A DNA stretch of 59,036 nt, filler included, from Basidiobolus ranarum (taxonomy: Eukaryota): NCBI GenBank assembly GCA_040143965.1. It is 7 parts of 7 records of this genome, joined end to end, with 100 filler letters (N's around TTAATTAATTAA, not from the genome) between each part and the next. Parts side by side here need not be neighbours in the genome. Positions count along the whole stretch, not along the records: positions 42,267 to 50,604 come from JASJQH010007858.1; 6 more parts are not named here. One strand, given 5' to 3'. The notes beneath the pieces were generated by a model. The model worked only from the letters and a program-made list of their open reading frames with translations, was not told the DNA's origin and searched no databases. Shown piece by piece: positions 8,377-54,198 of the stretch; position 1 is the first letter of the stretch, and every line of letters begins with the position of its first letter. The position numbers and the translations under genes were made by a program.

Positions 8377-8476
8377 NNNNNNNNNNNNNNNNNNNNNNNN
8401 NNNNNNNNNNNNNNNNNNNNTTAATTAATTAANNNNNNNNNNNNNNNNNNNNNNNNNNNNNNNNNNNNNNNNNNNN
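8377..8476. other. Artificial contig linker N44-TTAATTAATTAA-N44
   Basis: 100 nt; the palindromic six-frame stop core lies at 8421-8432; identical at six places in the window. Confidence 0.98.
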
Positions 8477-9640: not shown

Positions 9641-10253
9641 ATAGTTTCATACAAACCAGTACTTCGCTTTTTAACCTGGTAATTTATTTCCTAACTCTAC
9701 TTGACTTGCCACGTTGATGTACTCTCAAGCACTGGATAAGTCGCCCATCCTCACCTTTTCTCACTACTGTGTCTTCCTGCTTTAGGTCTATTAAGAATTA
9801 ATATATCTATGAAATATACCGCATGGTCGGTTTCCAGTTGCTCTACTATCTAACGGTAGACCTCTCATTGTCTCGGAAACCCATCATTCACTAAATTAAT
9901 CTAATCTCCTCACCTAATTTCAACGAAGCTTTCTACCAACGGGCTAATTATACAGTAAATAAACTGGTATTCAAATAATCGTTTTTTATAATATATACAA
10001 GCATTCATTTTTAGTAGTTTTCACACAGACAAATGAATCATCCGATTTCAATTAAACCAGTCACAGACACAATATTTTTTTACGATTCTTTCCATAATTT
10101 GAAGAAAAAAAAAAAGAGAATTTGGAATTTTTTAGAAATGTTCCTGTCTAATGAATTGATTCCGTAAAAGTTATCATTGATAGTAACCCAACCCTACGTT
10201 GTCCTATCCCATTCTTTTCTTTCCTTACTTTCTAACAAGTCCATTCTTCTACC

Positions 10254-16836: not shown

Positions 16837-16936
16837 NNNNNNNNNNNNNNNNNNNNNNNNNNNNNNNNNNNNNNNNNNNNTTAATTAATTAANNNNNNNN
16901 NNNNNNNNNNNNNNNNNNNNNNNNNNNNNNNNNNNN
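16837..16936. other. Artificial contig linker
   Basis: N44-TTAATTAATTAA-N44. Confidence 0.98.
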
Positions 16937-20345: not shown

Positions 20346-21993
20346 CTAATAGGTGATGGTAGCGAACTTCTTCTCATCAACTGGTGCTTCAACATCTACT
20401 CTGGGAGCTGAGACGATCTCTTCACGACTCTTACCATGGAACTGGCAAATCATGACATACACAAATCCACCTAATAAGAATCCAATGAACCAAGAAAAGT
20501 TGAACACTTTTTGGAAGAAATCCGGAATTCCTTGGACTCCAATCTTGTTTAAGAAGCCTGGGAAGTTAGGGATGATACCGATCACTAAGGCAACTAGGGC
20601 TGGCATGTGGAATCCGTTGCTATACCAGTAGATACCTCCAGGTTTGTACAACTCAGATACCTCTACATATCTCTTGCGAACGATCCAGTAGTCAGCAATA
20701 ACCACTCCACCAATAGGACCGAGGAAGGTAGTGTAGGATGAAAGGAAGTTGAGGAAGCCGTTGGCACCAGACAATAATTTCCAAGGGCAAATACAGATTC
20801 CAACAACCGCACACAAAATACTGCCACGTCTGATGGTCATATAGCGAGGAGCCAAAGATGAAATATCGTTTCCAGCGAATAAAGCGTTGCCAGCACAGTT
20901 AACTACCAATAAGGCCAAGCAGAAACCAAGACCGAGAATAAATTGAAGAACTCGGTTTAGGGTGCTACTAGGATCCATCTTACTGATGAATACGATAGGG
21001 TCCCAAATGGCTTCATTGTACAGGGTAATAGATGCCGAGGAAATAAACACAGCCAAGAAACCAGTGAAAAACATACTCAATGGAATGGTAATGGCCTGTC
21101 CGAGAGTCTGGGCTCTAACGGTTTTCGAGTATCTCGTATAATCAGGGCAGTTGATAGCGAAGGTTGCCATATTACCCATGACGGAGGTCACACCAGAGAA
21201 GAAGGCCCAGAAGAAGGGTTCCTTGCTTTCCACATTAGTTCCAGCCATAGCTAGGACAGAGCTGAAACCACCAGCGTTTACCACAGACCATACAAACAAC
21301 ACTATACCGGCAATGGGGAGGAAGAAGGCTTTGACCATAAACAACGGTCTAATCTTTTCGGCTCCTAGAGCAATTACTGGAATACTTGCCAACCAGAATA
21401 CAATACAAGGGATGAACTGTTTCATGTGAATATCCGGATCCGAGAAGCCTTTGTCGATATTATTATATCCAGGCCACACAGCAAGAATAACCACGTAGAG
21501 ACACTCACCTCCGAGCCAGAGATTGACACCATACCAGATCCAGGCGAGAACGAAACGCATACACACTGGAATATAGGCACCCTTCATACCAAAACTCAAG
21601 CGACCTACTACTGGGAAGGAGACATGGTATCTGGCACCTGTCACTCCAGCAAAAGTAATGGCTACAGTGATCACAAGCATACCAGTCATGAATGTGAGCA
21701 TAGCTTGCCACCAGTTCATTCCTAAGGATACTAGAGATCCAGCCATTAAGAACTTGGGAATGTTGAAGGCATCACTGATCCAAAAGGAGACAAAATTCAG
21801 GAGATCCCAAGTTTGTCTTTCCTCTGGTAGTGGGGCCATATCTTCACTCCAATAGCGATTGTTTTCGTGCTCAACATCACCATCACTGCGTTTGATCTCC
21901 ATAAAACTATATAGAAGATGACGATTGATTAGTATTTTGGAAACATTTGGTTAACTAAACGAGCAATTAAACTCACTTTTTGAGTCTTTCCAT
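20346..21993 (-). CDS. NCS1-family nucleobase:cation symporter (Fur4/Dal4-type uracil/allantoin/uridine permease)
   Basis: ~12 hydrophobic segments with motifs GARYHVSFPVVGRLSFGMKG, PDYTRY, PWKLL and ADYWIVRK. A short exon 1 (21993-21977) and intron 21976-21907 give MERLKNFMEIK. Confidence 0.93.
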
Positions 21994-25283: not shown

Positions 25284-25383
25284 NNNNNNNNNNNNNNNNN
25301 NNNNNNNNNNNNNNNNNNNNNNNNNNNTTAATTAATTAANNNNNNNNNNNNNNNNNNNNNNNNNNNNNNNNNNNNNNNNNNNN
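25284..25383. other. Artificial contig linker
   Basis: N44-TTAATTAATTAA-N44. Confidence 0.98.
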
Positions 25384-28600: not shown

Positions 28601-30165
28601 AACACTAGCGAAGAGAGTTATTGGTCGGTGATGGTGAGATATCTCAGAAATGCCTGGAGGTTCTTGCCATGACAGGAAATTAACTAATCTGCTCAAGCTC
28701 CGGGTATATAGCAATTATGGGAATCTCCAGTTTTATTGGATTGCCTCATCTCCACCAAAAGCACTAGAGCCATCAGCAAACTATATGCACCACTACACTA
28801 GATGTACACTAAATCCGGATCCGGATCAGTTGTGGAGAGCAAGTTTGGCTTCAAGAGCATTGGGACTCAAAGACGGCTTATTCTTACGAGGGACTTGGGT
28901 AGGATTGGATATGGTTGCACCTGGCATCTCGAAGTTAGTGCTTAGCCAAGAAAGACCTCCAATGACAAGTTTTTTAGACCAATGCCCGGTACCAAGCTAA
29001 TATCAGCGTTAGAACATACGGATTTCCATATTGGCCAATGATGAACGCGTCATTATCCCAGACAGGGATTTGACTGAAATTCATCACAATGCGTGCATTC
29101 TGGTAAATTCTCACGAAACTGGGGGATTATTAATGGATAGCTATTTGTATCATCGCTCAGTATTATTATTCCATGTACTCCCCTGATCAAAGGCCACCAT
29201 TTGCTGCAACATGGGGAGCCGACGAATATGCATGGAATTGGGCGAGTTGCGCATCATTCTGCATCCAGATCATTGACAAAACGCGATGTTATTGAGAATG
29301 GCTCTGACTAATAGTTACCAACGCTAGATGGAATTCTTCCTTAATCCTGATTGGAAAGCTGGCACTAATAAAGTAAGGGGTATGATTTTCGAACATTCTA
29401 TCAGTATAAGTAAAGATTATCCGTATTCTAATTCTATAATGGTGCCTATGTATCTCACACATAAATTAACGTAGTCTTTAAATCCTTGATAGCCCTAACG
29501 AATCCATTTGTTTGAACTATCCCTAATGATCATGCACTATTACCTCAGTCTTCCTGATTTGGATCTGAATAAAAGTTGTGAGCTGGATTAGGTGAAAGCC
29601 ATGGGCCCTAAATGAGAAAATGGGATAGTGGCAAGCCCTGATGGTTGGTCAATAGTATCCCAAGTACTGAGGATCAGTATTATTCCTTCGAGGCTAGTGA
29701 TCCCTGACTCACCCTGGCTGATCCTGGGAATCATGTAGAATCATTGGTTTAGCTAAGGCATTGGTTCGACGATGAATTTTTTTCGGTACGCCTGGGATTA
29801 GGGTTGGCGATTCTAATAAATACCTGGACCCTCCTGCTTCAAAAGTTGTAGGTAGAGCATTGCGAAACCATCTCTTCCAACTACCCTCCCCTCATCTGAC
29901 CCAAGCCTTCCTAGGTTGACCTTAGCGACATCTTAGCGTGTATTTAATTCATTGTCATATCAAACCACTATCAAACTGTTCCTGAATTTATACGCAATTA
30001 TCTCGTAACTCTGCTGAGTACGTTGTAAATATATCGATTTTACATCGAACCAACGTCAATAGAAATCCTGTGCACCTGATAAGCCCGTCGCACGTAACGC
30101 TGTAAATACCACATCATTCTCATTTTTGCCCTTATCAACATCCCAGATATTTATCCTGCATCACA

Positions 30166-31182
30166 ATGCAATCCTTCGACTTTGCTGCACACCCTGTACC
30201 AGAGACGGTCGCGTTACTTGCAGAGTATCTAACCAACATTGCCCAATCCAACGATAGGAATATCGTGCATTGCTATGATGCAGCAACGGGCGCTCCATAT
30301 TGTCCTGCATACACTCCTTTTCACGCCCGTGGCATTCCTTCCATTGATATTCAAGCCTATTTGACACGCATTTTAAAGTACTGCTCTTGCTCGAATGATT
30401 GCCTGATCGCTATCGTGGTCTATTTTGAGCGCTTAGTCAATCAAGGTGAGGGTCTAGCTGGGCGCCAGTTTGCCCTTGACTCTTACAATATTCATCGTTT
30501 GGTCATTGTCGCCATCATGGTTGCGACCAAATTTTTCTCCGATGTATTTTACACCAATGTTCGATATTCGAAAGTTGGCGGATTGTCGGTTTCGGAATTG
30601 AATTTTTTGGAAATGCAATTCCTTACCTTACATGACTTTAATATTCACGTTAGCTCTGATGAATTGCAATATTTCGCCGACTGTTTATTGAACAAAACCA
30701 AGCCAGCCGTAAACATGGTTACTCCTGAACTGGAAGCCCCTCAATTCTCCATCTCCAGTATGGATTCGGGTGCCGTGCAAACTTGGACACCTCCTACCAC
30801 TCCCACTCCATCCGATGAGTCCACCCCCATCATCTTCAACTCGAATGAGTTCAAGAATGCCTGTCAAATGAGTAAAAGCTTCTCCTCAGCTGACTTGGTG
30901 ATTCCAGGTAAAAAGGGCCGGACCGAGTCAGGTATTGAGATGATTATTCATCGTTCTAGCTCGATACAAGCTACGTCGAAGAATCAGTACTCGTGCTCAG
31001 TTCCGCTGATACCACAGCCGAACTCGGCCATCCGAAATCCGATAGTAAGTACAGAGCATGGTAAATCTATAGATATGTTGTTTAAGAAATCAAGTATTCA
31101 AAGCGGCCGAACATATGACTCCAATCTGAGTAATATTTTCAGTTCTACGAATGGAAATGTTCATGCATTGAAGTCTTGGTAG
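30166..31182 (+). CDS. Pho85-type cyclin (Pho80/Pcl6/Pcl7 family)
   Basis: Cyclin box TPFHARGIPSIDIQAYLTRILKYC...NIHRLVIVAIMVATKFFSDVFYTNVRYSKVGGLSVSELNFLEMQFL, followed by a low-complexity C-terminus. Confidence 0.93.
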   Translation: MQSFDFAAHPVPETVALLAEYLTNIAQSNDRNIVHCYDAATGAPYCPAYTPFHARGIPSIDIQAYLTRILKYCSCSNDCLIAIVVYFERLVNQGEGLAGRQFALDSYNIHRLVIVAIMVATKFFSDVFYTNVRYSKVGGLSVSELNFLEMQFLTLHDFNIHVSSDELQYFADCLLNKTKPAVNMVTPELEAPQFSISSMDSGAVQTWTPPTTPTPSDESTPIIFNSNEFKNACQMSKSFSSADLVIPGKKGRTESGIEMIIHRSSSIQATSKNQYSCSVPLIPQPNSAIRNPIVSTEHGKSIDMLFKKSSIQSGRTYDSNLSNIFSSTNGNVHALKSW

Positions 31183-33726: not shown

Positions 33727-33826
33727 NNNNNNNNNNNNNNNNNNNNNNNNNNNNNNNNNNNNNNNNNNNNTTAATTAATTAANNNNNNNNNNNNNNNNNN
33801 NNNNNNNNNNNNNNNNNNNNNNNNNN
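33727..33826. other. Artificial contig linker
   Basis: N44-TTAATTAATTAA-N44. Confidence 0.98.
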
Positions 33827-35227: not shown

Positions 35228-36457
35228 CTAGCCGATATGATACAATCCAAGAGCTGCTATTACTATCATTCCATAGAATAAGCCATTGATAACAGTCAAA
35301 GCAGGCTTGGCCTGTGACAACATCTTAATTCGGGCCACCCAGTCATTGTTGCTTTCTGTGGATGCAACCTTGTTCGAAAGAATCTCCTCCAAGTATACCT
35401 TGGACTGAACACCTTTCTTGAAACGTGCAGATTCTATGCTCCAATCCATGTTACCACGGCACCATGCTTCCAGAACGATTATATACTGAGCAACATCTTT
35501 CTTTACCTGAGCTGGGTAACCAGCTACCATCTTTTCGACTGCAGCTTTGGTTTCAAAAAAGTCTTCCATCTCCTTGTTTACCATATGCTCCACCACCTTG
35601 ACCGATTCGTCGATTGATATACCTTTCACCTGGTTGAGTACCATGACTAGATTGTGAATATCTCCATTTTCGTACTCCTTTTCGAAAGAGTAAATATCGT
35701 TTACCCAGCAGACAACATTGATGCACTGGTCTCTAAGAGTGTCAATAAGTTCACAAGTATAAATCTCCTTAGGTAGGGAAATCTCTTCGATGAACTCGAT
35801 CGCTTCCAAACACAGTCTCATGCTTCCTGAATCTTGTCGGTTCTTGATGTAGGTTTCAACATCTGGGTATCTGGTCATTTGTCTCATGTCACACTCGAAG
35901 ATATAGGCGTTCAAATACTTAATGAACTTGGAGGTCACGTTTTCTTGGAGTTCTACACTCGTAGTTTGACAAAATTCCACCCAGAGTTCAGATAAAGAGA
36001 TGTAAATAGGGGAGTCCTGGACTTGGGCCATTTGTTCAGCGAAACTCTCAGTTATCTTTCCTTCTTTCTCGTTTTGCATAAGGGACTCAACATTCTGAGC
36101 ATATTCCGAGGTTACTCTTTTTGTTTCGCTCGTGTTGAATATATTTAGCAAGGCTATGAAAATTATATACATCTGGATTTTATCTTGACCAAGTTCGCTG
36201 TCGTCGAATTGATCATCAAACATAAAAAGCCAAGAAAAAAGCTTAGCAATCCATAACATTCGATCATACTTAACGGTTATGTGGACGCGACAAGCTAGAT
36301 TTGTTAATTTTGACCGGACGAGTCTTTCCACAGCTTCTTTGCCTCGAATAAGTTGTTTCTGTGTCAACCATTCAACTGTCTCTCTCTCTATCTCCTTGTA
36401 TTCAGGAGACAATGAAGTAGGAGGAAGAAAATCGAAATCTCGAATAGCTATCTTCAT
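35228..36457 (-). CDS. Class I terpene synthase/cyclase (microbial, bacterial-type single domain) with C-terminal hydrophobic tail
   Basis: Motifs DDQFD (DDxxD), RQDSG, NDIYSFEKE (NSE), HNLV and WSIESARF (WxxxxxRY-like); intronless. The likely start is ATG 36457 (MKIAIRDF), ~50 nt downstream of a TATATAAA. Confidence 0.93.
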   Translation of the reverse strand: MKIAIRDFDFLPPTSLSPEYKEIERETVEWLTQKQLIRGKEAVERLVRSKLTNLACRVHITVKYDRMLWIAKLFSWLFMFDDQFDDSELGQDKIQMYIIFIALLNIFNTSETKRVTSEYAQNVESLMQNEKEGKITESFAEQMAQVQDSPIYISLSELWVEFCQTTSVELQENVTSKFIKYLNAYIFECDMRQMTRYPDVETYIKNRQDSGSMRLCLEAIEFIEEISLPKEIYTCELIDTLRDQCINVVCWVNDIYSFEKEYENGDIHNLVMVLNQVKGISIDESVKVVEHMVNKEMEDFFETKAAVEKMVAGYPAQVKKDVAQYIIVLEAWCRGNMDWSIESARFKKGVQSKVYLEEILSNKVASTESNNDWVARIKMLSQAKPALTVINGLFYGMIVIAALGLYHIG

Positions 36458-36504
36458 TAGGAATTGATTTTTTAACAGACGAGTATTTCTCGACGGAGGA
36501 ACAT

Positions 36505-36512
36505 TTATATAA
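36505..36512 (-). promoter_or_regulatory. Candidate TATA box of the terpene synthase
   Basis: TATATAAA on the minus strand ~50 nt upstream of ATG 36457. Confidence 0.45.
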
Positions 36513-39500
36513 CCACGCGCGAGCTCCAATGCCTGTATATTGTTCAAAAGCATCACGAAACAAATTAGTACATCGTGAAAAACTAGCCCCGATTCAACCT
36601 CATCAAGCAAACGCTACCATGTTCACTTGCCATATCGAATAAAAGCGGCTGATTAGAGGATTAGCACTCACTTGTGGTGGCATTGCTGTATCTAGTGTAC
36701 CAAACTGATTAGAATGCATTTCGAAAAACCTTATGAACGTCCAATTCTCTAGCATCCACCAATCTACCAAAAGGAACCGCCTTCCAGAACCAGACACCTC
36801 TCTTCTACGCAGAACTCGCTTACCAAAAAGGTCGAATTCTAAGACTCTTTGTCGTTGAGGCCCTGTCCATCAAGCAAAGGCTTCTATCCCAGTAGCGAAT
36901 TGAATTGCCGTACAAATCGAACAATCTGCGAACCAATTCGACTGAACAGGCATGTGGAGTTAAATCTAATTTTGCTAACGGAAAAGCTCTAGAAGTTAAT
37001 CCATGCGTGTAAACAATCATCAAGATTATATTCGAGTCAGGGCAAGAATCGATTCATTGGAAGATCGAATAGCTGTCAACACGTCGAAACATCCATTTCC
37101 GATTGCAGCAAATTGTCCGATTTCCACGGAAATAGCCATTCAGTGCAGTAGTAAACAGGGCAATCTTGATGCAGATTCTACCCAATACCACACGTGTGGA
37201 TCTAGGATTACATCAAAACCTGGGATATTCGAGATATGAGATAACTACACTATTGGCTACCGTGCCTCGGATGACAAAACTGTTCTATATCTTTTCCATA
37301 ATTGGACATGATGATGGAGCGTTGGGTGAGCCATGACAGTTTAGACGTATCATTGTCAAGAGCAGTTGGGTGGTGGACTTCTCTGGATTGGTGAGAATAT
37401 ATTTTAAATATTGTTAGTATCGGCTTCTAGATTATTAATAGGGTGTCCAGATCTGTATGTGAAAAAAACCAAGGACCGGGAGAGCTCTATTCTCCACTAC
37501 GTCCTAGAATAAGTTGTGCTGCTCAGAAGCGGCACCAATCCAATCTACAGTACCTTGTGCAAGTGAGAGGCCTGAGGTTAAAACTAAGCCTCAACCTAGC
37601 CTCGATAATGTGATCTTCTGAAACGAATGTTTATGTCAATAGCATTTCGCGACGCCGTGACGAGGGCTTGGACACCGGCCCCTGTAGTGTTGGGGTGGTG
37701 GATATTGCATGGGAAATGCTTTGCACTTGGTCTATGCTGCTGCGTTGGACGTTCGGCAGATGTATGATTCGCCGATGGTTAAATCATTTCCCTGGAATCG
37801 AAACTATCCCAGATTTTGAAAGTTGGTGAAGCTTGGAATCGGATCATTAAGCTTACTGCGTAGTAGGGAAGTTGAATCCTATCACAGGTGCATATAATCT
37901 TAGTCACACCATTGTAGGGTGGTGGACCAAATACCAGTTATCTATAGCTCATAACCAATTCTGAATTAACAGTCACTTTGTCAATTGATGCTATTGTGTT
38001 CGTCGTTGCACAAGTCAGGGAGTAAGAAGCTTACTTCATATGGTCTTGCGAGAAAATCATTGTTTGTTCATAAGCAAGCACGCAGGATTGCGCATGTTTG
38101 AGAATAACATGACTGGATCAGACAGGTGCTTAGAACTTAATTTTAAGCAACCACATAGAGAGGATGCGGTATGATAACCTGCAATGAGTATCTACCTGTC
38201 GGATGTTGTAAACTAAACTTTATTCACGAAAAGGCAGATGGGAATCGATTGACATTTTGTAGACAAGATGCAGAATCTACTCGTTGAGATGCAAGATTTA
38301 GGCAATAGAATCGAAAGCTTTTGCGTTAATCTCGTTATTCTTGATCTAGATATTTCGCACAGTCCCTCCTTCTGGGAAGGTACGTCCATTCCCAAAAGGC
38401 ACATACGTTATAGTGATCACTCCATATCTGACCTGACTTTTGGAACGAAATCCAGAGCATGTGTAGAACTAAAAATCCGATTACTGGGTTAAACCCCTAA
38501 CTGGTTAAAAGCCGTCGCCTCTGTTGAACATGGAAAGGACAAAGTTGTACCCACTGAGTCTCCAGAATCTTCAATCGAAACGGTGCACTTCCATATACGT
38601 CACGGCCTACTTTTTTGTAACAGCACATTTCCATACACGTCCAGGTGCTCTTTTGCAACTAATTACACGTAATCATTTCGCCGTGATTTTCTCAAATAAC
38701 AGGCACGAATTCCCTAATGACTATTGTCATATACAGCGGCATCTTTCAATCACCCTATCCCCGACACACACTCTTCATGTCTCTCACACCATTGGACAGC
38801 GAGCCAGCCATTAAGTACTCGTCTCCTTTGCTTACTGGATAGTATGAATGTTCATCCATTGTATCTGTTTTGAGACAGGAGGATTTGAAGCCACAATGGA
38901 TGTCCAATCATCTCGAACTGACTATTTCAGAACAGTTGTTACTATTTTCAAAATTCCGGCCGCATTTAAATACTCCATTCCATTTAAGGAGACTTGTGTT
39001 TAGTAATTCTGGGGAGACTGGGAGAGCGAAGAAAACCTCTAGCACACCATCAGGCGAAGGAATCAAAATGGAAAGTGCTCATTAATAAGTTAATAATTTC
39101 TCACGTGTAAATCGAGTTGCATTTACATAGCAGAATGGTCTCACGTACCAACCTAGTGTTCTCTCATCCTTTTACTCAATTCCACAAGTGGCTTAACATA
39201 AACAATTTCAAAGAACGTTCTAGAGTGTTCGTGCCGAAAAACAGCGAGCAATACCCAGCAGGTCATAATTTGCACTAGCCTTAATTTGACTTCGATCTAC
39301 GAGACGGAAGTATAATAGGAATGTTGATCATGTTCTTGAGAATCTGCTCCCTATGGCACCTTGGAACCATTTCAAGAAATAGGGTGCATTTACCAAATCT
39401 CGTGCTTGTCCTCACACTTACATATTAGCCAATGCCGAAGGTCAATCGCCACTAAGTGAAGCATCTTGATTTGATAGTCAGCAAGTTCCTTATTTGACTT

Positions 39501-42166: not shown

Positions 42167-42266
42167 NNNNNNNNNNNNNNNNNNNNNNNNNNNNNNNNNN
42201 NNNNNNNNNNTTAATTAATTAANNNNNNNNNNNNNNNNNNNNNNNNNNNNNNNNNNNNNNNNNNNN
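42167..42266. other. Artificial contig linker
   Basis: N44-TTAATTAATTAA-N44. Confidence 0.98.
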
Positions 42267-42646
42267 TCATCAGAAGATGCTGATCCTTTTTCTTTAGCGG
42301 ATTGCCATGCGATAGCATCGCCGTCTGCGTCCAGACTAGGGCCTGTTTGATACTTGACATTGACTCCCTTTCGGGCACTAGCCTTAGCGGTGTTCAGATT
42401 GTCATGTTTCCTGATGATTGTGGTGAATACCTGTTTCAACAACGGGGTTTTTAATCTTGTTGTCTTAATAACCGGTTGCATTTGGACTTGCTGGTTGCAG
42501 TCTGTTGCTTGTTGTTCGCATGATAATGAGCGATAGAATACTCTGCCGATAGCACCAGCGCATGGAGAGGAGCAACCAAGAGGAGCGGCGTTGGTAGTTT
42601 GAAGGATACAAACAGTAAGAAAAGGGGCAATAGAAGAAAACCGCAT
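42267..42646 (-). CDS. Secreted 8-Cys array protein, copy 1 (3' truncated by contig end)
   Basis: Signal peptide MRFSSIAPFLTVCILQTTNA, then APLGCSSPC...RKHDNLNTA...KYQTGPSL; paralogous to the following copies. Confidence 0.8.
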
Positions 42647-43429
42647 GATTGGTATACTCTGAATATATCAACCACTCTGACTGTACTAACATCGGGTTAA
42701 ATGTATACTAGCAAGCTTTGCATTGCAAGGTTTAGTTAATGGTTTACGGTAATGTAATTAAATCTAACTTGAATTTAATAACACCTGATTTAAGTTGGCC
42801 TATGTTTTGGTACGACTAACCCTTGACTGAAGGCGCAAAGATTTTGCTTAAGTAATGAAAGTAAATTCTGTGATAGTAACCAAAATGTGGATCTGCATAT
42901 TCGAATATCTTCTACCCTAACATTAGCTATATTTCACATTAAATTGAAAAGCAATTGTAGCTCATATTAATACACTAATGCATAAGAATTTTAGCCTGAG
43001 GAGTATGTCAACAATAAATTGGTAAATACCAAATGAAAACAGCATTGGTCGATATTTACAGTTAGTAATTTGCTTAAATTTTTGCACTTTGTGGCATACA
43101 TTTTTTTATAAGTGTAATATGGAACAGTTATACTGACAAAGGTGAGATGACTGACTACTATTGCAACACGAACAATTTGCTCAGTGATGCTGTGTAAGTC
43201 AAGTAGATCACATTACGAGCAGAACAGAGTATAAATTTAGATTTGACTGGATATTTTGTCTATATCGAGTACAAATAGATAGAAAGTAAATCCCAACTTT
43301 TCTTTATAAACTTCGCCGGTTAGGAGGGCTCCCAGGTCGGTTATATCACTTCTTGCTTATTTAATGTGATATGTGCCATAATCTAATCATAACTATTTTT
43401 ATTCAATATATTTGACTAGAATACAATCC

Positions 43430-43948
43430 TTATTGACCACAATTTTCAGTACAAGGGGTTGATACGGGTACTTGATTGATGCAAGGTGCAATACATTCGG
43501 TCACTTCAGCAGGTGATATGTATTGTGTAGTTTGACCTGGGACTATCATCAGTGAAGGGTGTTCCGAATTGTCATTTGGAGATTCTGAACCTTTTTGTTT
43601 GACATACTCCGATGTAATAGCATTGCCTTCTGCTTCCAAACCTGGCCCGGTTTGATACTTGAAATTGATTCCTTTTCTGTTGCTAGCGCTAGCAGTGTTC
43701 AAATTATCATGTTTCCTGGTGTTTGTGGTGAATACTTGTCTCAATAGTGGAGTATGTAGGCTTTTTGCCTTAATAACAGGCTGCATGTGGACATTCTGGT
43801 TACAGCTGGTTTCCTGTAGTTCACAAGGTAATGAGCGATAGAAGACTCTTCCGATTGTACCAGTACACGGAGAACAACCAAGGGGAATGGCGACGGTAGT
43901 TTGAAGGGAGGCAGTAGCTAGAACAACAGCAATGGAAGTAATAAGCAT
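43430..43948 (-). CDS. Secreted 8-Cys array protein, copy 2 (172 aa)
   Basis: Intact intronless ORF with signal peptide and the family motifs. Confidence 0.85.
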   Translation of the reverse strand: MLITSIAVVLATASLQTTVAIPLGCSPCTGTIGRVFYRSLPCELQETSCNQNVHMQPVIKAKSLHTPLLRQVFTTNTRKHDNLNTASASNRKGINFKYQTGPGLEAEGNAITSEYVKQKGSESPNDNSEHPSLMIVPGQTTQYISPAEVTECIAPCINQVPVSTPCTENCGQ

Positions 43949-44614
43949 GATGAGTGTACTTTGAATATACCTACATAAGGCTCAATATATACATGTTTGC
44001 TTCATTTATCATAATTTGTTTAGTGCTTTACGGTAATGAAGTTGAAATTAACTTGATTTATTGGATTGAATTAACATCTGGTGAAAGCTAACTTCTATAG
44101 TGATACTGAGATTTCCAGACTCAAGTCAGTGAGATTTAGCTCAAGCTGTGGTTAATGCACATGGCCTGGTTTCTATTAAAGATAAATTGAAGTATATAAA
44201 CTTAACAAAGCAAAAATATTAATAATAAATTGAACGAAGTATGCTCCGAATCTACCTGCAATGAGAGACTGTGCACACCGTTCAACCAGATATGCAAAAT
44301 GTGTACTTCAAGATTCAAACTTTAAATCTGTAACAATATATCACCCATGTCTTTGCGTATATTCCGTATGTATTGGCAGTGTAGTTGAATATTACCGCGT
44401 TTGATTATCGATGCCTGTTCTTGTCACAGTCACTCTCGCATTAAGAAGTTTATTTATTTATAGCTGGCGGAATGAAGCCTTTGTTTGAAGAATGCACCCA
44501 TTATTGTGGTTGCTTAGTCGAATACATCCCTCAGTACAAATTTCAACTGAAATCCAACTTTATTTAATCATTGACCATCCTGTTCAATAAATTTGGGTAG
44601 AAGTAGAGATATCA

Positions 44615-45127
44615 TTAGCCACAATTTTCAGTACATGAAGTTGATACAGGTAGTTGACTGATACAAGGTGCAACACACTCGGTCACTTCGGCAGGTGTTG
44701 AGTATTGTGTAGTTTGACCTGGGACTATCATCAGTGAAGGGGGTTGTGGATTTTCATCGGAAGATTCTGAACCTTTTTCTTTAGCATATTGCCATGCGAT
44801 AGCATTACCTTCAGCCTCCAGACTAGGACCTGTTTGATATTTGACATTGATTCCCTTTCTGGCACTAGCCTTAACGGTGTTCAGATTATCATGTTTCCTG
44901 GTAATTGTAGTAAATACTTGTCTTAATAGAGGGCTATGTGTGCTTGCTGTCTTTATAGTCGGTTGGATATTCTGGTTGCAGTCTGTTACTTGTTGTTCGC
45001 ATGGTAAGGAACGATAGAATACTCTGCCGATAGTACCAGTGCATGGAGAAGAGCAGCCAAGAGGAGTGGCCATGACAGTCTGAAGGGAAGCAGCAGCTAG
45101 AATTAAGGCAATGGAAGTAAAACGCAT
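44615..45127 (-). CDS. Secreted 8-Cys array protein, copy 3 (170 aa)
   Basis: Intact ORF with signal peptide and family motifs; TATATATA lies ~50 nt upstream. Confidence 0.85.
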   Translation of the reverse strand: MRFTSIALILAAASLQTVMATPLGCSSPCTGTIGRVFYRSLPCEQQVTDCNQNIQPTIKTASTHSPLLRQVFTTITRKHDNLNTVKASARKGINVKYQTGPSLEAEGNAIAWQYAKEKGSESSDENPQPPSLMIVPGQTTQYSTPAEVTECVAPCISQLPVSTSCTENCG

Positions 45128-45796
45128 GGTTAGTATACTCTGAATGTATCAATATCGGGCTGGAGATGGCTCTATATATACTTGCTGGCATCAAATGTCA
45201 TAGTCTAGTTAGTGCTTTAGTATAATGAAATTAAAGTCAACTTGATTTATTCATTTCAATTAACATCTGGCTGAAGTTGATGTCTGTATTGATACACAGA
45301 TTTTCAGACCCAAGCCAGTGAGATTTAGCTTAGGCCGTGGCTAATGGATATAGGTTTGCTGTTGTTAAAAATAGATTTAAGTATAGTCAGATAACGCGAT
45401 AAAAGTATTAACATTAAAATGAATGAAAGAAGCTCCGAATCCACCCATGTTGACTACAATGTTACTATACAGGGTCCAAACCGTTTGATGTGCTATGCGG
45501 AAAGTATATTCATTGTTAAAAGCATTCAAAAGCGATATCTTAGTAGTTCATTAGTTAACAACCTATCAGCCATGTTTCTGTGTACTTGTTATATATTTAT
45601 GGACTATTTAGCTGAAGGTTACAAGATTTGATTAGCAATGTCTTTTCCTGTCATAGTTGTTGGCATTCGTACAATAAGAAGTCTATCTACATGTTACATG
45701 CACGACTAAGCCTTTCTTTGAAAATCATATTCATTATTATGGTTGCTTATTCTATTATATCCCACGGTGCAAATTTCAACTGAAATCCAACTTTAT

Positions 45797-46366
45797 TTAA
45801 TCATCGACCATCCTGCTCAGTAAATTTGGGTAGAAGCAAACATATCGTTGACCACAATTTTCAGTACACGAGGTTGATACAGGTACCTCCTCATTGCAAG
45901 GTGCAACACACTCCGTTACTTCGGCAAGTGCTGAGTATTGTGTAGTTTGTCCTGGGACTATCATCAGTGAAGGGAATTCCGAGTTGCCATTTGAGGATTC
46001 TAAACCTTTTTGTTTGATATACTCCGATGCAATAGTATTGCCTTCTGCTTCCAGACTAGGGCCTGTTTGATACTTAACATTGATTCCTTTTCTGTTACTA
46101 GTGCTAGCGGTATTCAAATTGTCGTGTTTCCTGGTAATTGTGGTGAATACTTGTCTCAATAGTGGGGTATGTGTGCTTGTTGTCTTGACAACTGGTTGTA
46201 TTTGAACATTCTGGTTGCAGTTTGTTGCTTGCTGACCGCATGCTGATGAGCGATAGTAAATTCTTCTGATAGTCCCAGTGCATGGAGAAAAGCAACCAAG
46301 TGTACCGGCAATGCAAGCTGGAACGAAAGCAGAAGTTAGGATGAAGGAAATGCAAGTAAAACGCAT
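45797..46366 (-). CDS. Secreted 8-Cys array protein, copy 4 (189 aa, C-terminally extended)
   Basis: Intact ORF with CAA CGA where siblings have TAA TGA / CAA TGA, adding RYVCFYPNLLSRMVDD. Confidence 0.85.
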   Translation of the reverse strand: MRFTCISFILTSAFVPACIAGTLGCFSPCTGTIRRIYYRSSACGQQATNCNQNVQIQPVVKTTSTHTPLLRQVFTTITRKHDNLNTASTSNRKGINVKYQTGPSLEAEGNTIASEYIKQKGLESSNGNSEFPSLMIVPGQTTQYSALAEVTECVAPCNEEVPVSTSCTENCGQRYVCFYPNLLSRMVDD

Positions 46367-46966
46367 GATTAGTATTCTCGGAATATAGCAATATCGGACT
46401 GGATATGGCTCTATATATACTTACTGGCATCAAATATAATAGTCTAGTTAGTGCCTTACGCTAACGAAATTGAAGTCAACTTGCGCTATATATTTTAGTT
46501 AACATCTAGTAGAGGTTGATATCTGTCTTGATACATAGATTCCAGACCCAAGCGGTGACGTTTAGCTTAGGCTGTGGTTATTTGCTATTGTTAAAAGTAG
46601 ATTTAAGTATAGTTAGATAACGCGATAAAAGTATTGACATTAAAATGAATGAAAGTAACTCTGAATCCACCCAAATGAGTACTATGTTATTCAACGTACT
46701 ATGCGAAATGTATATTCATCGTTAAAATTTTTCAAAAGTCATATTTTAGTTACTCATTAGTTGTAAATATATCAGTCACGTTTCCATGTGTTTTATATAT
46801 GCTTATGGACTATTTAACGGGTTAGCGATGAGCCTTTGTTCGATGAATGCCCCGTGATTATGATTGCCTATTCAAATACATCCCCGGTACAAATTTAAAC
46901 CGAAATCCAACTTTATTTAATTATTGACCAACCTGTTCAATAATTTGGGTAGAAATACAGATATCA

Positions 46967-47485
46967 TTAGCCACAATTTTCAGTGCATGAAGTTGATACA
47001 GGTAGTTGATTGATGCAAGGTGCAACACACGCGGTCACTTCGGCAGGTGCTGAGTATTGTGTAGTTGGACCTGGGACTACCATCAGTGAAGGGAGTTGGG
47101 GATTTTCATCCGATGATTCGGAACCTTTTTGTTTGGCATACTCTGATGTAATAGCATTTCCTTCTGCCTCCAAACTAGGTCCTGCTTGATGCTTGACATT
47201 GATTGCTTTTCTGTGACTGGCGCTAGCAGTGTTCAGATTGTCATGTTTCCTAGTGATTGTAGTGAATACTTGTCTCAATAGTGGAGTATGTAGGCTTGTT
47301 GTCTTGATGACAGGTTGCATTTGGACATTCTGGCTACAGCTGGTTTCTTGTTGTTCACAAGGTAATGAGCGATAGTATACTCTGCCGATAGTGCTAGTGC
47401 ATGGAGAAGAGCAGCCAAGAGGAGCGGCGGTGGCAGTCTGAAGGGAAGCAGCAGCTAGAATGAAGGCAATGGAAGTGAAACGCAT
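46967..47485 (-). CDS. Secreted 8-Cys array protein, copy 5 (172 aa)
   Basis: Intact ORF with signal peptide and family motifs. Confidence 0.85.
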   Translation of the reverse strand: MRFTSIAFILAAASLQTATAAPLGCSSPCTSTIGRVYYRSLPCEQQETSCSQNVQMQPVIKTTSLHTPLLRQVFTTITRKHDNLNTASASHRKAINVKHQAGPSLEAEGNAITSEYAKQKGSESSDENPQLPSLMVVPGPTTQYSAPAEVTACVAPCINQLPVSTSCTENCG

Positions 47486-48326
47486 GATTAGTATATTCTG
47501 AATGTATCAACATCAAGCTCTATATGGCTACATATACATCATAAAACATAGTTTAGTTATACTGTACGCCAATGAAATTTAAGGCAAGTTGATTTATTTA
47601 TTTCAGTGATCATATGTTTGAAATTTAACACTGTACCGATTTTTAGATTTCCTGATAAGAATTTTGATTTTTGAATGGAGGAAAGATACTCCAGATCCAC
47701 TGTATTTGAGTATGAAAAAATCTAATGCTCCTTATCCACACAAATTTTGAGTATTACGTTGCTAACATTTTGTGAATTGTGTAATGTGTAAAATATGTAT
47801 TAATCGATTCAAACCTTAAATTACCTATTATTTAATGATTCATTATTTAACAACATATCAGCCATAGTTTTGTGTATGCATTACGTATTTGTTGATAAAA
47901 TCGAAGTCAACTTGTTAATTCATTTCAATGAAAATCCGATTGAGGCTTTCCAGACCAAAGGTGATGGGATTTAGCTTAGACTGTGGTTAATGCAACTATG
48001 TTTGCTTTATTAAAAGTACATTGAAGTACAGCTACCTTAAGCCGTAGAAATATTTATGTTACGATGAATAAGCGATGCTACGGACTCACCGAAATTGAAT
48101 ATTTTGCTACTGACAGTGCGCTAATCGTTCAACTTCATTCATCAGATGTATGCTTATCAATTCGGAAACCTATCTTAATGTTGCTGCCGAACTTTTTTTA
48201 CACTGTACCAATGATGAAGGTTTCAAGGTCGCTTGTATCCCTTGTTACAAACTTCACTTGAAGACCCGCTTCGTATATTCATAAACCTTCTTTGTTCAAT
48301 AAATTTGAGTAGAAGCGGAAATCTCA

Positions 48327-48845
48327 TTAGCTACAATTTTCAATACATGAGGCTGATACAGGTACTTGATCAATTCAAGGTGCAACACACTCGGTTACTT
48401 CTGCAGGTGCTGAGTATTGTGTAGTTTGGCCTGGAACTATCATTAGTGAAGGGAGTTGTGAGTTGTCATTTGAGGACTCTGAAACTTTCTCTTTGGCATA
48501 TTCCGATGCCATAGCGATGCCTTCTGTCTCCAAACTAGGGCCTTCTTGATACTTGACATTGATTCCCTTTCTACTACTAGCGCTAGCGGTATTCAAATTG
48601 TCGTGTGTCCTGGTAATTGTGGTGAAGAATTGTCTCAATAGTGGAGTATGTACGCTGGCAGTCTTGACGAAAGGTTGCATTTGAATATTCTGGCTACAGT
48701 CAGTTACTTGTTGTTCACATGGTAATGAACGATAGTATACTCTGCTGATAGTGCTAGTACATGGAGAATAGCAGCCAAGGGGAGTGGCCATGTCAGTCTG
48801 AAGGGAAGCAGCAGCTAGAAAGAAGGCAATGGAAGTAAAACGCAT
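48327..48845 (-). pseudogene. Array copy 6 with premature stop (Cys codon changed to TGA at 48375-48377)
   Basis: ECVAP* is followed in frame by IDQVPVSASCIENCS* up to the family stop at 48327, so three C-terminal Cys are lost. Confidence 0.75.
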
Positions 48846-49369
48846 GATTAGTATACTCTGAACACACAAACATAGAGTTCAAAATATACATGTCAGCATC
48901 ATATATCATAGTTTAGTTAGTGCTTTACGGAAATGAAATTGGAAGCTACTTAATCTTTCATTCCAACTAGCATCTGGTTGAAGCTCACAACTATATTAAT
49001 ACTAGAGCTTCCAGACTCAAGTCAGTGATATTTAGCTCGCGCTGTGGTTAATGCACATGGTTTTGTTTCTATTAAAGGCAAATTGAAGATTAGTGAACGG
49101 GGCAAAAATTTGTTACGGATGTGAAAAAAGATGTTCCGAAGCCACCCTATATTGAGAGTTATGTTGGTAAAAAGTGTGTAAACCGTTTAACTTAATATGC
49201 AAAATGTGTACTTATTCAGACTTTAAGTAATCTATTAAAGCATATCGGATGTGCCTTTGTGTATATATTCCGTATATATGGGCAATTTAGCTGAATATGA
49301 TTACGCTTTATTGTCGATGCCTATAGATATACTATCGTTATTCAGCAACTTTAGCTGAAAGTGGAAGTC

Positions 49370-49895
49370 TCATTGACCACAATTTTCAGTACATGGGGTT
49401 AATACAGGTACTTGATCAATGCAAGGTGCAACACAATCGGTCACTTCCGCAGGTGCTGAGTATTGCGTAGTTTGACCTGGGACTATCATCAGTGAAGGGA
49501 GTTGTGGATTTTCATCGAAAGATTCGGATCCTTCTTCTTTAGCATATTGCCATGCGATAGCATTGCCTCCTGCTTCCAGACTAGGGCCTGTTTGATTCTT
49601 AACATTGATTCCTTTTCTACTACTTGCGCTAGCGGTGTTCAGGTTGTCATGTTTCCGGGAGATTGTGGTGAATACCTGTCTATAATAATAATGGGGTATG
49701 TGTGTTTGTTGCCTTTATAGTCGGTTGCATTTGGATGTTCTGGTTGCAGTCTATTGCTTGTCTCTCACATGGTAATGAGCGATAGTAGACTCTGCCAATG
49801 GTTCCAGAGCATAGAGAATAGCAGCCAAGGGGAGTGGTCATGGCAGTCTGAAGGAAAATAGCAGCTAGAATGAAGGCAATAGAAGTAAAACTCAT
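49370..49895 (-). pseudogene. Array copy 7, frameshifted
   Basis: A 4-nt insertion in a TTA run near 49685 gives TPLLL*; the rest (RQVFTTISRKHDNLNTA...ENCGQ*) continues in another frame. Confidence 0.8.
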
Positions 49896-50452
49896 GATTA
49901 GTATACTCTGAACGTATCAATACCGGGCTGGAAATGGCTCTATATATACATGCCAACAGCAAATATCATAGTTTAGTCAGTACTTTACTCTAATGAAATT
50001 GAAGTCAACTTGATTTAGTTATTTCAATTAACAGCTTGGTGAAGTTAAGATCAGTATTAATACTAAGATTTTCAGACTCAAGCCGTTGAGATTTAGCATA
50101 GGCTGTGGTTAATACATATATATTTGTTTCTATCAATGCTAGATTGAAGTATAGTTACTTAACGTGATAAAAATATTTGAATTTGAATAAAGGAAAGATG
50201 CTTCAGATCCACTCATATTGAGTATTTATACTGATCCGCAGTGGTAGGCCGTGTTATGGAGATGTACACGCATCAATACAGAAAGTTTATCTTTAGGTTA
50301 CTCGTCCAAATGATTCATTTTTTATAGATTATACCAATTATGGAGGTTGCCAGGTCGATCATATCCCTTGCTGAAAACCAAACATGGTATCCTACTTTAT
50401 GTATTCAAAGACTTTCTTTATTCAATAAATTTGAGTAAATGCAAAAATCTCA

Positions 50453-50604
50453 TCAACCACAATTTTCTGTACACAGGCTTGGTTCCGGTACTCGATTGAT
50501 GCAAGGTGCAACACACTCGGTCATTTCGGCAGGTTTTGAGTATTGTGTAGTTTGACCTGGGAGTACCATCAGTGAAGGGAGTTCCACATTGTCATTTGAG
50601 GATT
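50453..50604 (-). CDS. Array copy 8, 3' end only (5' truncated by contig end)
   Basis: SSNDNVELPSLMVLPGQTTQYSKPAEMTECVAPCINRVPEPSLCTENCG*. Confidence 0.8.
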
Positions 50605-50704
50605 NNNNNNNNNNNNNNNNNNNNNNNNNNNNNNNNNNNNNNNNNNNNTTAATTAATTAANNNNNNNNNNNNNNNNNNNNNNNNNNNNNNNNNNNNNNNN
50701 NNNN
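50605..50704. other. Artificial contig linker
   Basis: N44-TTAATTAATTAA-N44. Confidence 0.98.
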
Positions 50705-50797
50705 GTATGTCTTAGTTACTTCTATTGTATCTTCCTCTTCAATATTTCAGTTCAAATTAGTAGAATGAGTTACTCACGCTATCTATTTTCATTGTAG

Positions 50798-51341
50798 TCC
50801 ACTTTTCTGGATGCACCACGCCTTTGTAGACAAAATCTGGGCTGACTGGCAAGATGCAAATCCTTCTTTGGCTGGCGACTATAGTGGAGTAAACCATATG
50901 AATGGAAATGCAGTCACCACCAGTGATGTATTAGAGCCATTCGGATATCGAGTAGCAGATATCCTAAGCACCACCTCGCTATGCTATCGTTACCCAGAGG
51001 GAAGGAATCGACGATCAATTGAATTGAAAAAAAGAACATTAATAGAAGAATCTATGGAAAGTTTATTAAGCTCTTTAAATGAAACACTTGATTTCAATCA
51101 ACTCTTGAACAGCGTTATAAATACGAATCAACCTGATTACGCGAGTATATTTGGTCTACCAAATTCATTTGATCGTGAACAGGAAGGATTGAATGTACCT
51201 GCTGCACTTGACTTGGATTTCATTAATATGTACGGTTTTGATGTTCGTAAAGTACGTACTATGGAGATGGAGAACGCAATGTGGATCAAAAAATCTAACC
51301 AGATGGCTTCTTCCGATTCATCTACTGATCTTCTATTTTAG
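50798..51341 (+). CDS. Tyrosinase/di-copper oxidase, last exon (5' truncated)
   Basis: Intron GTATGT 50705..AG 50797, then the CuB-site motif PLFWMHHAFVDKIWADWQ, core-terminal CYRY (YxY), a dibasic linker RRSIELKKR and a C-terminal extension. Confidence 0.88.
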
Positions 51342-51850: not shown

Positions 51851-54198
51851 TCATTTTGGTATTACTTTACTGGAGTCTAGACATCCAAATCCAGTTCCAT
51901 TGGGTTGAATGACGGTCGCTTCCGTGATATCGAAAAAGTCTTCTTGACGAATCTTTTCCTCGCTTAATTTGATCTTCAGTAAACTCTCGGATATGGTAGA
52001 AGTAATGGACCCTCTACGAACTTCACGTCTGGCAAACGCTTCAGCCGCCGAGAATGGGGTAAGAATATTTCCATTGACATCCATAGGTGGTGCGACATCA
52101 GGCAGATCCACTTCTTTGACGACTGGATTTTTCATCGGATTGAGATTCAACGCAGGAATATATTTCGGATTACCAGGTCCTTCGCAGACAACCTTGAGAC
52201 GCTCACTGCCATCCGGAGCACGGTGTGAAAATACCACTCTTATGTTTTTGTAGAGGTAGATTCGTTTCTTCGAAGGTGAACAAAACTGTAGATGAATCGC
52301 ATAGCGTAGAGTTTGATTCTCATTAGATGGTCCTGGTACCGAATACGACTTTTGTCTTAAAAAAGTCTTCGAATTCTCCGGCATATCTGAGAAATCATAG
52401 GGAATGAGGAAGAATTTGACTGCAGTTTTGTTGGGATTCTTGACTATCACTTGGAGTTGTCCTTTGGGTGGGATTCTGTACCCATGAGGGAATCGCTTGT
52501 CAACTGCGTCTCTAAGTTTGGTATTTTCAAGATCTACAGTGCCCACATAAGGCGATGGTGAATCCGTGTTACCATGTTGATAGAAGTAGGCAGGAAATTC
52601 CATGTTAAGGTGGGGCGGGCATTTAAGTGAAGGTTTACACTTTCCCTTACCAAGCACCCCGACTTGTACAGTGAAGTTGATAGGCTTAGATGGCAATGTG
52701 GACATTCTTCCACTTAAGATTGACTCTTCATAACTTCCTACTAATGACCCAAACAATTCCGACGGATTCAAACAAGAGAGACTGGATCGTCGGCCTCCAT
52801 ATCTGGGTGGCATCATCGCCCCGGAATTGCTAGGATGATTCGTATGAGAGCTTCTATGTGTAGAATTTTTAAATGGCGAAAGAGGTGAATGTGGAGGAGG
52901 AGTCAAGTTGATGTGGCAATTGTATGGCTTGCGGACTGGATCGATTGCTCTAGTTGCAACTGTTCTGTCTAGCCCTACTCCAGTGGCATTGATCTTGGAA
53001 GCATAGGCATGCTTTTCCATAAAGCGATGACTAAAAGTATCGTGTGGAGAGTTACCGATCGGTGAAGCAGCAGGGATACTCACTGGTCGAGAAAGTCGGA
53101 TGGATGGATTTATCTTTATGCTTCCATCATCATCTGATGTATTTACATCCCTTTCGTTTATCTCCATACAGTCTCCCTGCTCTTCTTTAAGGGTGGTTAA
53201 CCCTTGAAATGAAGATAAATGATGGTATTTTGGCGTATATTTGTGAGGACTATCCAGTACTGATGATTTTCGTTTTAATTGTTGAGTATGCTTATATTCC
53301 TCTACTGTTTGATCCGGTGTACATTTCTGAATAGAGAGAAAGGTTAGTCTATGAGAAAGATTCATTCAGGGTTAGGTTCTTTACATACCTCAATATTCTC
53401 GTCATTTCCAGTATTCTCACACTCATCTAACCGAACCTGTTCCAGCGTCTTATCATATGCAACGCTAACATTCAATTTACCGAAAGAAGTACAAGCGCTA
53501 TTGAATTGATTACTAGCAAGATCCAGTCCAACTGGGAAACAATCCGTTGAGCATGCACTACTATACGAAGTGATATCGTAATCCACGTCTTCTTTAAGTA
53601 TAATATTCTTGTTGATTAAAGAGTGTAGGGGTAGATATCTGATTTGCGAATAGATCGATTGTAAGAGTAAAACGAGCTGTGTTGTATCTAACTTATTGCG
53701 CTCACTAAACTTTCGTTCACTAAAAGAGGCCGATAAAATACTTAGTGAATGTATTATAATAATATTTCAACACCATTCATGAACCTACCAATTTTCAAAA
53801 GAAATTGACCAACATTCAAGCAAAGTATGTTCATGTTTCTTAAATATATGAATATGTATGGGTTCACCATTTTTCCATAAACTAAGAGCATTTTCAAAAG
53901 AAGGATCCACTTTCTATATTTGAAAAGTGGTTAGTTCACTTTCAGTAAATCAGGGGTGAATGTTTTTATACGTACATCTAGAGAATTATCCACATGAACT
54001 GAAGTTGCTTGTTGACCAGTTCTAGCTTTCAAGATTATCTGACCGATTTTTGTAATAAATTCCATTCCAGTATCTTTGTTTAAGCATGGACCCCCAACTA
54101 CAAATAGAAAACCAACAAGTAAGTCTTACTACTCCAAAGTAAAGAAAACTTAGTAAATAACATCACGTACAAGGAATGACCTCAAGTGCACTAGGCAT
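51851..54198 (-). CDS. FAM214/ATOS-family protein (DUF4210 + Chromosome_seg) with N-terminal HORMA-like region
   Basis: Exons 54198-54171, 54097-53976, 53913-53789, 53719-53389 and 53326-51851 splice in frame. Motifs GSLVGSYEESILSGRMS, SPYVGTVDL, YRIPPKGQLQVIVKNPNKTAVKFFLIPYDFSDMP, TFLRQK and LRYAIHLQF. Confidence 0.88.

Follow-up and report, generated by a model that had tools for sequence, protein, structure and literature searches.

A tandem gene array in Basidiobolus ranarum belongs to a genus-restricted family of putative secreted proteins defined by a cysteine-free module

Introduction

What holds together a family of small, putatively secreted proteins that a fungus encodes at least eight times in a row, and what might such proteins do? 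The question is raised by a locus of Basidiobolus ranarum (assembly GCA_040143965.1) at positions 42267-50604 of a 59,036-nt stretch of DNA, called the window throughout, in which seven pieces of ~8.3 kb are joined; the locus is exactly one of these pieces (record JASJQH010007858.1). A first-pass annotation of the window had described it as a tandem array of at least eight intronless genes, running off both ends, for an unrecognised secreted protein family with eight cysteines.

The genus Basidiobolus diverged early among the fungi. It discharges conidia by force, makes sticky capilliconidia and passes through the gut of amphibians and reptiles, and it is an occasional human pathogen. To our knowledge, almost nothing is known about its surface or secreted proteins. 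Here we report that the family is defined by a short module (module A), not by its cysteines, that it is restricted to a single genus, that module A is paired with a second module (module B), and that the B. ranarum array of at least eight copies is unannotated; these are the new elements.

A tandem array of diverged copies

A tblastn search of the whole window with one copy, c5, as query placed eight copies (c1 to c8) head-to-tail on the minus strand, all within 42267-50604, and found no further copy in the other six pieces; it returned 10 high-scoring segment pairs, including one chance match (E=0.58). The copies follow each other at 1046-1360 nt from start to start and, in a repeat search (families of 6 copies), are 60-87% identical to the reference copy. 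Tandem Repeats Finder returned no rows, which does not contradict the array because its maximum period, 500 nt, is shorter than the array unit. The piece boundaries truncate the outermost copies, leaving c1 without its C-terminus (3' end) and c8 without its N-terminus (5' end), and thus the array extends past both ends.

The copies are paralogous intronless genes in a tandem array of at least eight. In fact, the intronless gene model is supported by P0001, an annotated B. ranarum protein of 174 aa that is colinear with the open reading frame (ORF) of the array. The number of copies, their regular spacing and the cut end copies are as first described; that each unit holds an ORF of ~170 aa was too simple. 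Four of the six complete units carry full-length ORFs, one of which has lost its stop codon (c4, 189 aa), one carries a nonsense codon (c6) and one a 4-nt frameshift (c7), and only c2 (172 aa), c3 (170 aa) and c5 (172 aa) are canonical.

Module A, not the cysteines, defines the family

The single element conserved across the whole family is module A, a cysteine-free basic block of ~45 residues with the consensus P-L-L-R-Q-V-F-T-T-x-T-R-K-H-D-N-L-N ... K-Y-Q-x-G-P-S-x-E-x-E-G. P68, Q72, T78, R79, L84, Q100, G102 and P103 do not vary among 23 sequences with identities as low as 27%, and between species 18 of its ~45 residues hardly change. In the window copies the block corresponds to the core at aa 67-110 (pI 10.3), which the first-pass annotation had already singled out as conserved, basic and free of cysteines. 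All six alignable copies fit the family definition: a signal peptide, C-x6-C, and P-[LVIM]-[LM]-[RK]-Q-x-F-T-T-x-T-R-K-H-x-N-L-N ... K-Y-Q-x-G-P-S-x-E-x-E-G.

The cysteines behave differently. The window copies have the pattern first noted, C-x2/3-C, x13 and C-x6-C near the N-terminus and CVAPC...CTENC, that is two C-x3-C pairs, at the C-terminus; the eight cysteines are spread over about 147 residues, in two terminal clusters ~100 cysteine-free residues apart. Across 38 relatives the number of cysteines runs from 0 to 10, and C-x6-C is the sole pair that is widely kept. Eight cysteines are a trait of the window subfamily, to which the original description of an eight-cysteine family applies, and not of the family.

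In front of this chain stands a signal-peptide-like N-terminus, as first annotated: residues 7-15 have a Kyte-Doolittle value of 2.37 and are followed by ATA|AP, and all aligned full-length family members begin with the same type of segment. What follows it, the mature part, is a hydrophilic chain of ~150 aa, rich in S (11.9%), T (10.6%), P (8.6%) and also Gln, without Trp, and with a grand average of hydropathy (GRAVY) of -0.43.

A short, extremely conserved stretch that follows a signal peptide within an otherwise variable, disordered chain is also what one would expect of a pro-protein whose cleavage frees a secreted signalling peptide, made up of all or part of module A, and the first-pass annotation had pointed to conserved RK pairs and to peptides cleaved at them. 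Fungi do make secreted peptides from precursors such as the KEPs, which the portion of Le Marquer et al. (2019; PMC6339444) drawn on here describes as secreted proteins with repeated motifs separated by KEX2 (KR/RR) sites. The array proteins would resemble them as secreted fungal precursors with a conserved short peptide within a variable chain. They differ in that each has one module A, against the repeats that define KEPs, and no conserved KR/RR: the canonical dipeptides occur in one of the six window copies (c4) and never flank module A. As for the RK pairs, R79-K80 is nearly invariant family-wide and sits within the conserved block rather than on its border; the second RK is found only in the window's clade, with SDK, SNK or KKS in relatives. 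We rejected an assignment to KEPs on the single module and the KR/RR pattern, we see no case for RK-cleaved peptides, and we regard a peptide precursor of any kind as distinctly unlikely.

A family of one genus

Every relative found comes from B. ranarum or B. meristosporus. Of 17 matches in a word-indexed search of 5.8 billion clusters, B. meristosporus accounts for 16 and B. ranarum for 1 (E 1.4e-84 to 8.1e-28); among 1.84 billion representatives, searched exhaustively with phmmer, 23 matched at E<=0.001, all of them Basidiobolus; and a profile of 23 diverse members gave 26 (8 B. ranarum, 18 B. meristosporus). A metagenome scan yielded 44 pattern matches, none of which was confirmed by tblastn. 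The family thus delimited comprises at least 60 deposited proteins, restricted to the genus, plus the array. Five window proteins have no letter-for-letter copy among about 15 billion public proteins, and so the array is unannotated. In the full-text literature on Basidiobolus secreted proteins, transcriptomes or capilliconidia, supplementary tables being outside the scope, we found no description of the family.

In a maximum-likelihood tree of 33 rows, the cysteine-rich proteins with module A only form one clade (support 95/97), which splits into the window copies together with B. ranarum P0001 (7 rows; support 93/94) and 13 B. meristosporus proteins (98/96). Since the tree splits by species, the expansions are lineage-specific. 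P0001 is identical to no window copy, and its nearest is c3 (84%). This places the window in the B. ranarum lineage, as DNA of a further isolate or species or as another stretch of the array that holds P0001.

The family is unrecognised in the sense that no Pfam cut-off is reached and no PDB sequence matches, and it is not wholly new to the databases, where relatives are deposited as 'hypothetical protein' in two Basidiobolus genomes. Four window copies gave no Pfam family at E<=10, and a profile search of all PDB sequences no match at E<=10. The signal-plus-cysteine head of 3 of 23 members resembles Myticin-prepro (best E 0.0025; bits shown at most 14.5 against a cut-off of 28.5) and that of 2 of 23 Evasin class A (EVA_Class_A; 17.3 bits against 27); both stay below the gathering cut-offs, and no window copy matched either. 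The ESM Atlas returned nothing usable for c5. For the relative P0028 its nearest feature neighbours are a cuticular protein, casein, enamelin and MEPE at scores of 0.75-0.79, on a scale where shuffled or reversed proteins reach a first match of at least 0.8 a third of the time.

Several named families were considered and rejected. Hydrophobins have eight cysteines in the pattern C-CC-C-C-CC-C, with two CC doublets, in a hydrophobic or amphipathic domain of ~100 aa. The array proteins are like them in being small, putatively secreted and multi-copy, in having eight cysteines (the window subfamily) and in being candidates for a surface role; they are unlike them in lacking a CC doublet in every copy, in their two terminal cysteine clusters, in the hydrophilic chain (with the negative GRAVY given above), in the variable cysteines of the wider family and in the empty Pfam result, all of which agrees with the initial remark that this is not a hydrophobin. 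CFEM is a fungal extracellular domain with eight cysteines within about 60 residues; no match to it was found in 4 window copies or 23 family members, and the eight cysteines here span more than twice that length. UniRef automatic names call P0002, P0009, P0018, P0022 and P0058 CBM1 proteins, and there is no Pfam CBM1 match for P0002 and P0009 (E<=10) or for P0018 and P0058 (E<=1) in a scan of these four. P0047 and P0049, automatically named SCP/CAP, have no Pfam CAP match at E<=1, and by their sequence both look like gene models that run on from a module B gene into a module A gene. Finally, some relatives contain D-V-Q-F-Q-A, reminiscent of the PIR-type glucan-linking repeat; the window copies read I-N-V-K-Y-Q, and no such Pfam match was obtained.

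An orphan secreted family is in itself an ordinary kind of finding, because many zygomycete small secreted proteins (SSPs) lack Pfam domains: 2,222 of 3,066 shared SSP orthogroups have no Pfam similarity, according to the parts of Chang et al. (2022; PMC9391592) consulted. The array proteins share with these SSPs a length below 300 aa, a signal peptide (predicted here), no Pfam domain, close relatives only and lineage expansion. They stand apart by the cysteine-free 45-aa module and its partner module B and by the long tandem array, and the family is not named in those parts of the survey.

Old paralogues under purifying selection

Are the copies still under selection? Pairwise Nei-Gojobori estimates for six copies (c7 excluded for its frameshift, c6 read through its stop, c1 with its 126 codons only) gave dN/dS of 0.22-0.47, with a mean of 0.30, at dS of 0.37-0.74. 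The first-pass annotation had set down a dN/dS near 1 as one half of the case against its reading; the observed mean lies well below this. By region, pN/pS is 0.14 in the core and 0.24-0.42 in the remaining mature parts; the signal peptide, at 1.23, is the only region with a ratio above 1, and there it goes with a low pS (0.17). Outside the coding sequence, the proximal promoter and the 3' flank are kept among the copies: over aligned whole units, mean pairwise nucleotide identity is 71-90% in the coding sequence, 57-82% in the ~300 nt upstream and 0-17% where the distal spacer is richest in indels. In 4 of 7 copies the start codon is preceded, at 29-54 nt, by a TATA-like element, GTATATATAGAGCCAT. 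At up to 3 mismatches it has 7 matches in the window against 1.06 expected, and 4 of the 7 are upstream of copies.

Could the array nevertheless be a decaying, functionless set of duplicates, either relic genes or a repeat assembly artefact? Disabling lesions in 2 of the 6 complete units, the lost stop in another and the absence of all 5 tested window proteins from public protein sets would fit. The low dN/dS at dS up to 0.74 speaks of long-term constraint, the promoter and 3' flank are conserved, the copies differ by 13-40% in nucleotides and thus are not a collapsed or duplicated assembly, and relatives are annotated in two other genomes. We therefore regard decay as extremely unlikely. As far as their sequences tell, the copies are old, diverged paralogues under purifying selection, with their own promoters, and neither recent dosage copies nor junk. 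Multiple copies there are, as the first-pass annotation said; its description of them as dosage-amplified is weakened by the 71-82% protein identity among window copies and by the dS values, which do not fit a recent amplification.

The same figures bear on a second alternative, in which the proteins act outwards, as effector-like or antimicrobial-like secreted proteins against gut bacteria, insects or the vertebrate host, with a disulfide-bonded N-terminal segment as the active part. A signal peptide on a small cysteine-containing protein, independent lineage-specific expansions in the B. ranarum clade with the window copies (7 rows) and in B. meristosporus (13 rows), the weak likeness of the head to Myticin-prepro and Evasin class A, and the abundance of zygomycete small secreted proteins, mostly without Pfam domains in what we have seen of the survey (PMC9391592), would all be expected of such proteins. 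The selection pattern points elsewhere: the strongest constraint falls on the cysteine-free core, not on a variable mature peptide, the only ratio above 1 belongs to the signal peptide, where pS is simply low, the first cysteine pair is missing in many relatives, some of which have no cysteine at all, and the Myticin and Evasin matches are under cut-off. Because the tightest constraint is on a cysteine-free motif common to all paralogues, and the mature chain gives no sign of diversifying selection, a partner of the fungus's own fits better than an arms race, and we consider an outward-acting role somewhat unlikely.

Two minor observations concern the codons themselves. In the first 21 codons of the copies pS is 0.17, well below the 0.26-0.47 of the remaining codons, and pN (0.21) is higher; this low pS may stem from constraint on the nucleotide sequence close to the start, or from gene conversion that took in the proximal promoter as well. 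The GC content of third codon positions (GC3) is 0.30-0.36 in the copies and 0.36-0.47 in six other window ORFs, and we see no sign of foreign origin or special bias in codon usage.

Module B and its link to module A

Many longer relatives contain a second conserved segment, module B (...Q-A-L-L-D-x-V-N-x-H-S-S ... A-L-S-N-S-N-Q-F-D-Q-A-Q-V-I-D-Q-T-L-Y-Q...), followed by a basic Lys/Arg/Tyr tail. A search with module B gave 25 matches, all from B. meristosporus, many of them predicted stand-alone secreted proteins of 174-193 aa; by these matches module B, too, is confined to Basidiobolus. The two modules occur in one chain in at least nine proteins from both species (P0018, P0028, P0029, P0032, P0034, P0039, P0042, P0043 and P0058). 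In B. meristosporus, moreover, seven pairs of an A-type and a B-type protein have equal scaffold lengths, and in three of the seven the locus tags are near-adjacent (302776/302777, 308263/308267 and 362234/362240). In several gene models, P0040 and P0049 among them, the reading continues out of a B gene and into an A gene, whose own signal peptide is included.

A-type and B-type proteins have a common head, the signal peptide plus C-x6-C (hhalign probability 82.5%, E 9.8e-06, 48 columns). The idea that modules A and B are diverged copies of each other was rejected, as hhalign aligned this N-terminal head only and not the modules. Module A thus pairs or fuses repeatedly with a second orphan module, which makes the two a testable partner pair and, possibly, a genus-specific marker.

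The A gene's signal peptide lies mid-protein in the B. meristosporus models P0040, P0049, P0023 and P0013, and these may be annotation run-ons rather than true fusions. In P0032 (B. ranarum K7432_003216) modules A and B are separated by tracts in which K-P-K-K-H-H-T-(W/S)-E and M-E-M-P-x-M-E-K-T each recur about six times; the composition of these His-/Met-rich tracts suggests metal binding.

Such tracts raise the possibility that the family consists of secreted metal-binding or metal-buffering proteins, with the ligands in the variable region after module A. The C-terminus of the window copies, with its two C-x3-C pairs, and the acidic Q-C-x3-C unit that B. meristosporus relatives repeat up to three times (P0012) could be read in the same way as the His- and Met-rich repeats of P0032. 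These segments are the least conserved in the family, however, and their chemistry varies by member; no metal-binding family was matched, and the basis is composition only. We consider a metal-related function of the family very unlikely.

A possible extracellular material

What, then, might the proteins do? The structure predictions contain little order. AlphaFold2 reached a pLDDT of 39.3 and a pTM of 0.11 with 18 sequences, and 49.5 and 0.14 with 49 sequences; its single helix, residues 2-13, is the signal peptide, and no secondary structure is predicted after it. The ESM Atlas model of P0028 has a pLDDT of 0.37, and its structure matches have TM values of at most 0.23. A secreted, largely disordered protein would be the simplest reading of these models. 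A homo-oligomer prediction with four copies of residues 58-125, run without a family alignment or controls (score 0.01, mark 0.32), weighs neither way on self-association.

We tentatively favour, at somewhat less than even odds, a non-enzymatic role as a disordered extracellular matrix or surface protein. The proteins would be exported and act outside the cell, where the chains would stay largely unfolded, as wall, spore-surface, matrix or adhesive material. Through module A they would dock to a conserved endogenous partner, for which the sister module B proteins, fused to A in relatives or encoded there on what appear to be the same scaffolds, are the most plausible candidates. The terminal cysteine pairs (C-x3-C and C-x6-C) could provide disulfide staples or cross-links, and the several diverged copies may supply isoforms rather than simple extra dosage. 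Animal secreted disordered matrix proteins (cuticular proteins, caseins, enamelin, MEPE), the nearest feature neighbours of P0028, are comparable in being secreted and without a predicted fold; at the scores given above the resemblance is one of composition, not homology.

Several points weigh against a matrix or surface role. It is argued from composition and the conservation pattern alone. The low pLDDT comes from a 49-row alignment of one genus and so is no proof of disorder, and the cysteines that would do the cross-linking vary across the family, at 0-10 per protein. The shared B. meristosporus scaffolds are deduced from database fields (equal lengths, locus-tag numbers), not from DNA, and neither the array piece nor the rest of the window has a match to module B beyond chance, so the proposed partner is not local. 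Finally, two of the six complete units (c6 and c7) are damaged.

We envision a more specific version of the matrix role, which we hold to be unlikely as it stands. The A and B proteins would be two halves of a Basidiobolus-specific, self-assembling extracellular material made of disordered, oppositely charged and disulfide-linked chains, for which the glue of the capilliconidial beak or a layer of the spore wall are candidates. Capilliconidia of the Basidiobolaceae have a beak with adhesive material, as stated in PMC13370150; the family is not tied to capilliconidial glue by any result here. If true, the A/B material would add a new class to the fungal biomaterial proteins and would, in an early-diverging lineage, take the functional place of coats of the hydrophobin or repellent type. 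More generally, a structural or adhesive role would make the family a new protein material; otherwise it is one orphan secreted family among thousands.

Positions of the copies and other features of the window

The pieces of the window are separated by spacers of N44+TTAATTAATTAA+N44 at 8377-8476, 16837-16936, 25284-25383, 33727-33826, 42167-42266 and 50605-50704. Since the pieces are merely joined by these spacers, genes of different pieces are not to be taken as neighbours.

Table 1. Copies of the array, TATA-like elements and other ORFs, in positions of the window.
Feature	Position	Strand	Remarks
c1	42267..42646	-	codons 1-126 only, with signal peptide, the four N-terminal Cys and module A; over aa 1-126, 70.6% identical to c5
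c2	43430..43948	-	intact, 172 aa, 8 Cys; first Cys pair is the C-x2-C variant
c3	44615..45127	-	intact, 170 aa, 8 Cys; of all copies nearest to B. ranarum P0001 (84% identity)
c4	45797..46366	-	189-aa ORF; usual stop (TAA/TGA) changed to CGA, adding 17 residues
c5	46967..47485	-	intact, 172 aa; query and reference for the analyses
c6	48330..48845	-	TGC to TGA at the Cys157 codon; ORF stops at 48375 (156 aa, 5 Cys); homology continues to 48330
c7	49370..49895	-	4-nt insertion after about codon 69, frame shifted; probable pseudogene, unless an assembly error
c8	50453..50604	-	last ~49 codons: CVAPC...CTENCG and stop
TATA-like element GTATATATAGAGCCAT	43977-43992	-	upstream of c2, 2 mismatches
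TATA-like element GTATATATAGAGCCAT	45166..45181	-	39-54 nt upstream of the c3 ATG
TATA-like element GTATATATAGAGCCAT	46405-46420	-	same element, c4
TATA-like element GTATATATAGAGCCAT	49934-49949	-	same element, c7
108-aa ATG ORF	46104-46430	-	overlaps c4 in a different frame
1763-codon open frame	3027-8318	+	another piece; no Pfam family at E<=0.001
Methyltransf_8 protein	10236-11831	+	another piece
Purine/cytosine permease	20346-21950	-	another piece
Cyclin	30106-31182	+	another piece
Terpene synthase	35228-36613	-	another piece; Terpene_syn_C_2, 7.3e-41
Tyrosinase-like C-terminal fragment	50769-51341	+	next piece; Pfam Tyrosinase, E 8.7e-05
DUF4210/Chromosome_seg protein gene	51851-53365	-	next piece

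The 108-aa ORF over c4 is probably a chance ORF; over the other copies the equivalent frames are open only as short stop-to-stop stretches. A spacer separates the tyrosinase-like fragment and the DUF4210 gene from the array, so they are not linked to it. The terpene synthase, permease, methyltransferase-type and cyclin genes in other pieces are ordinary fungal genes.

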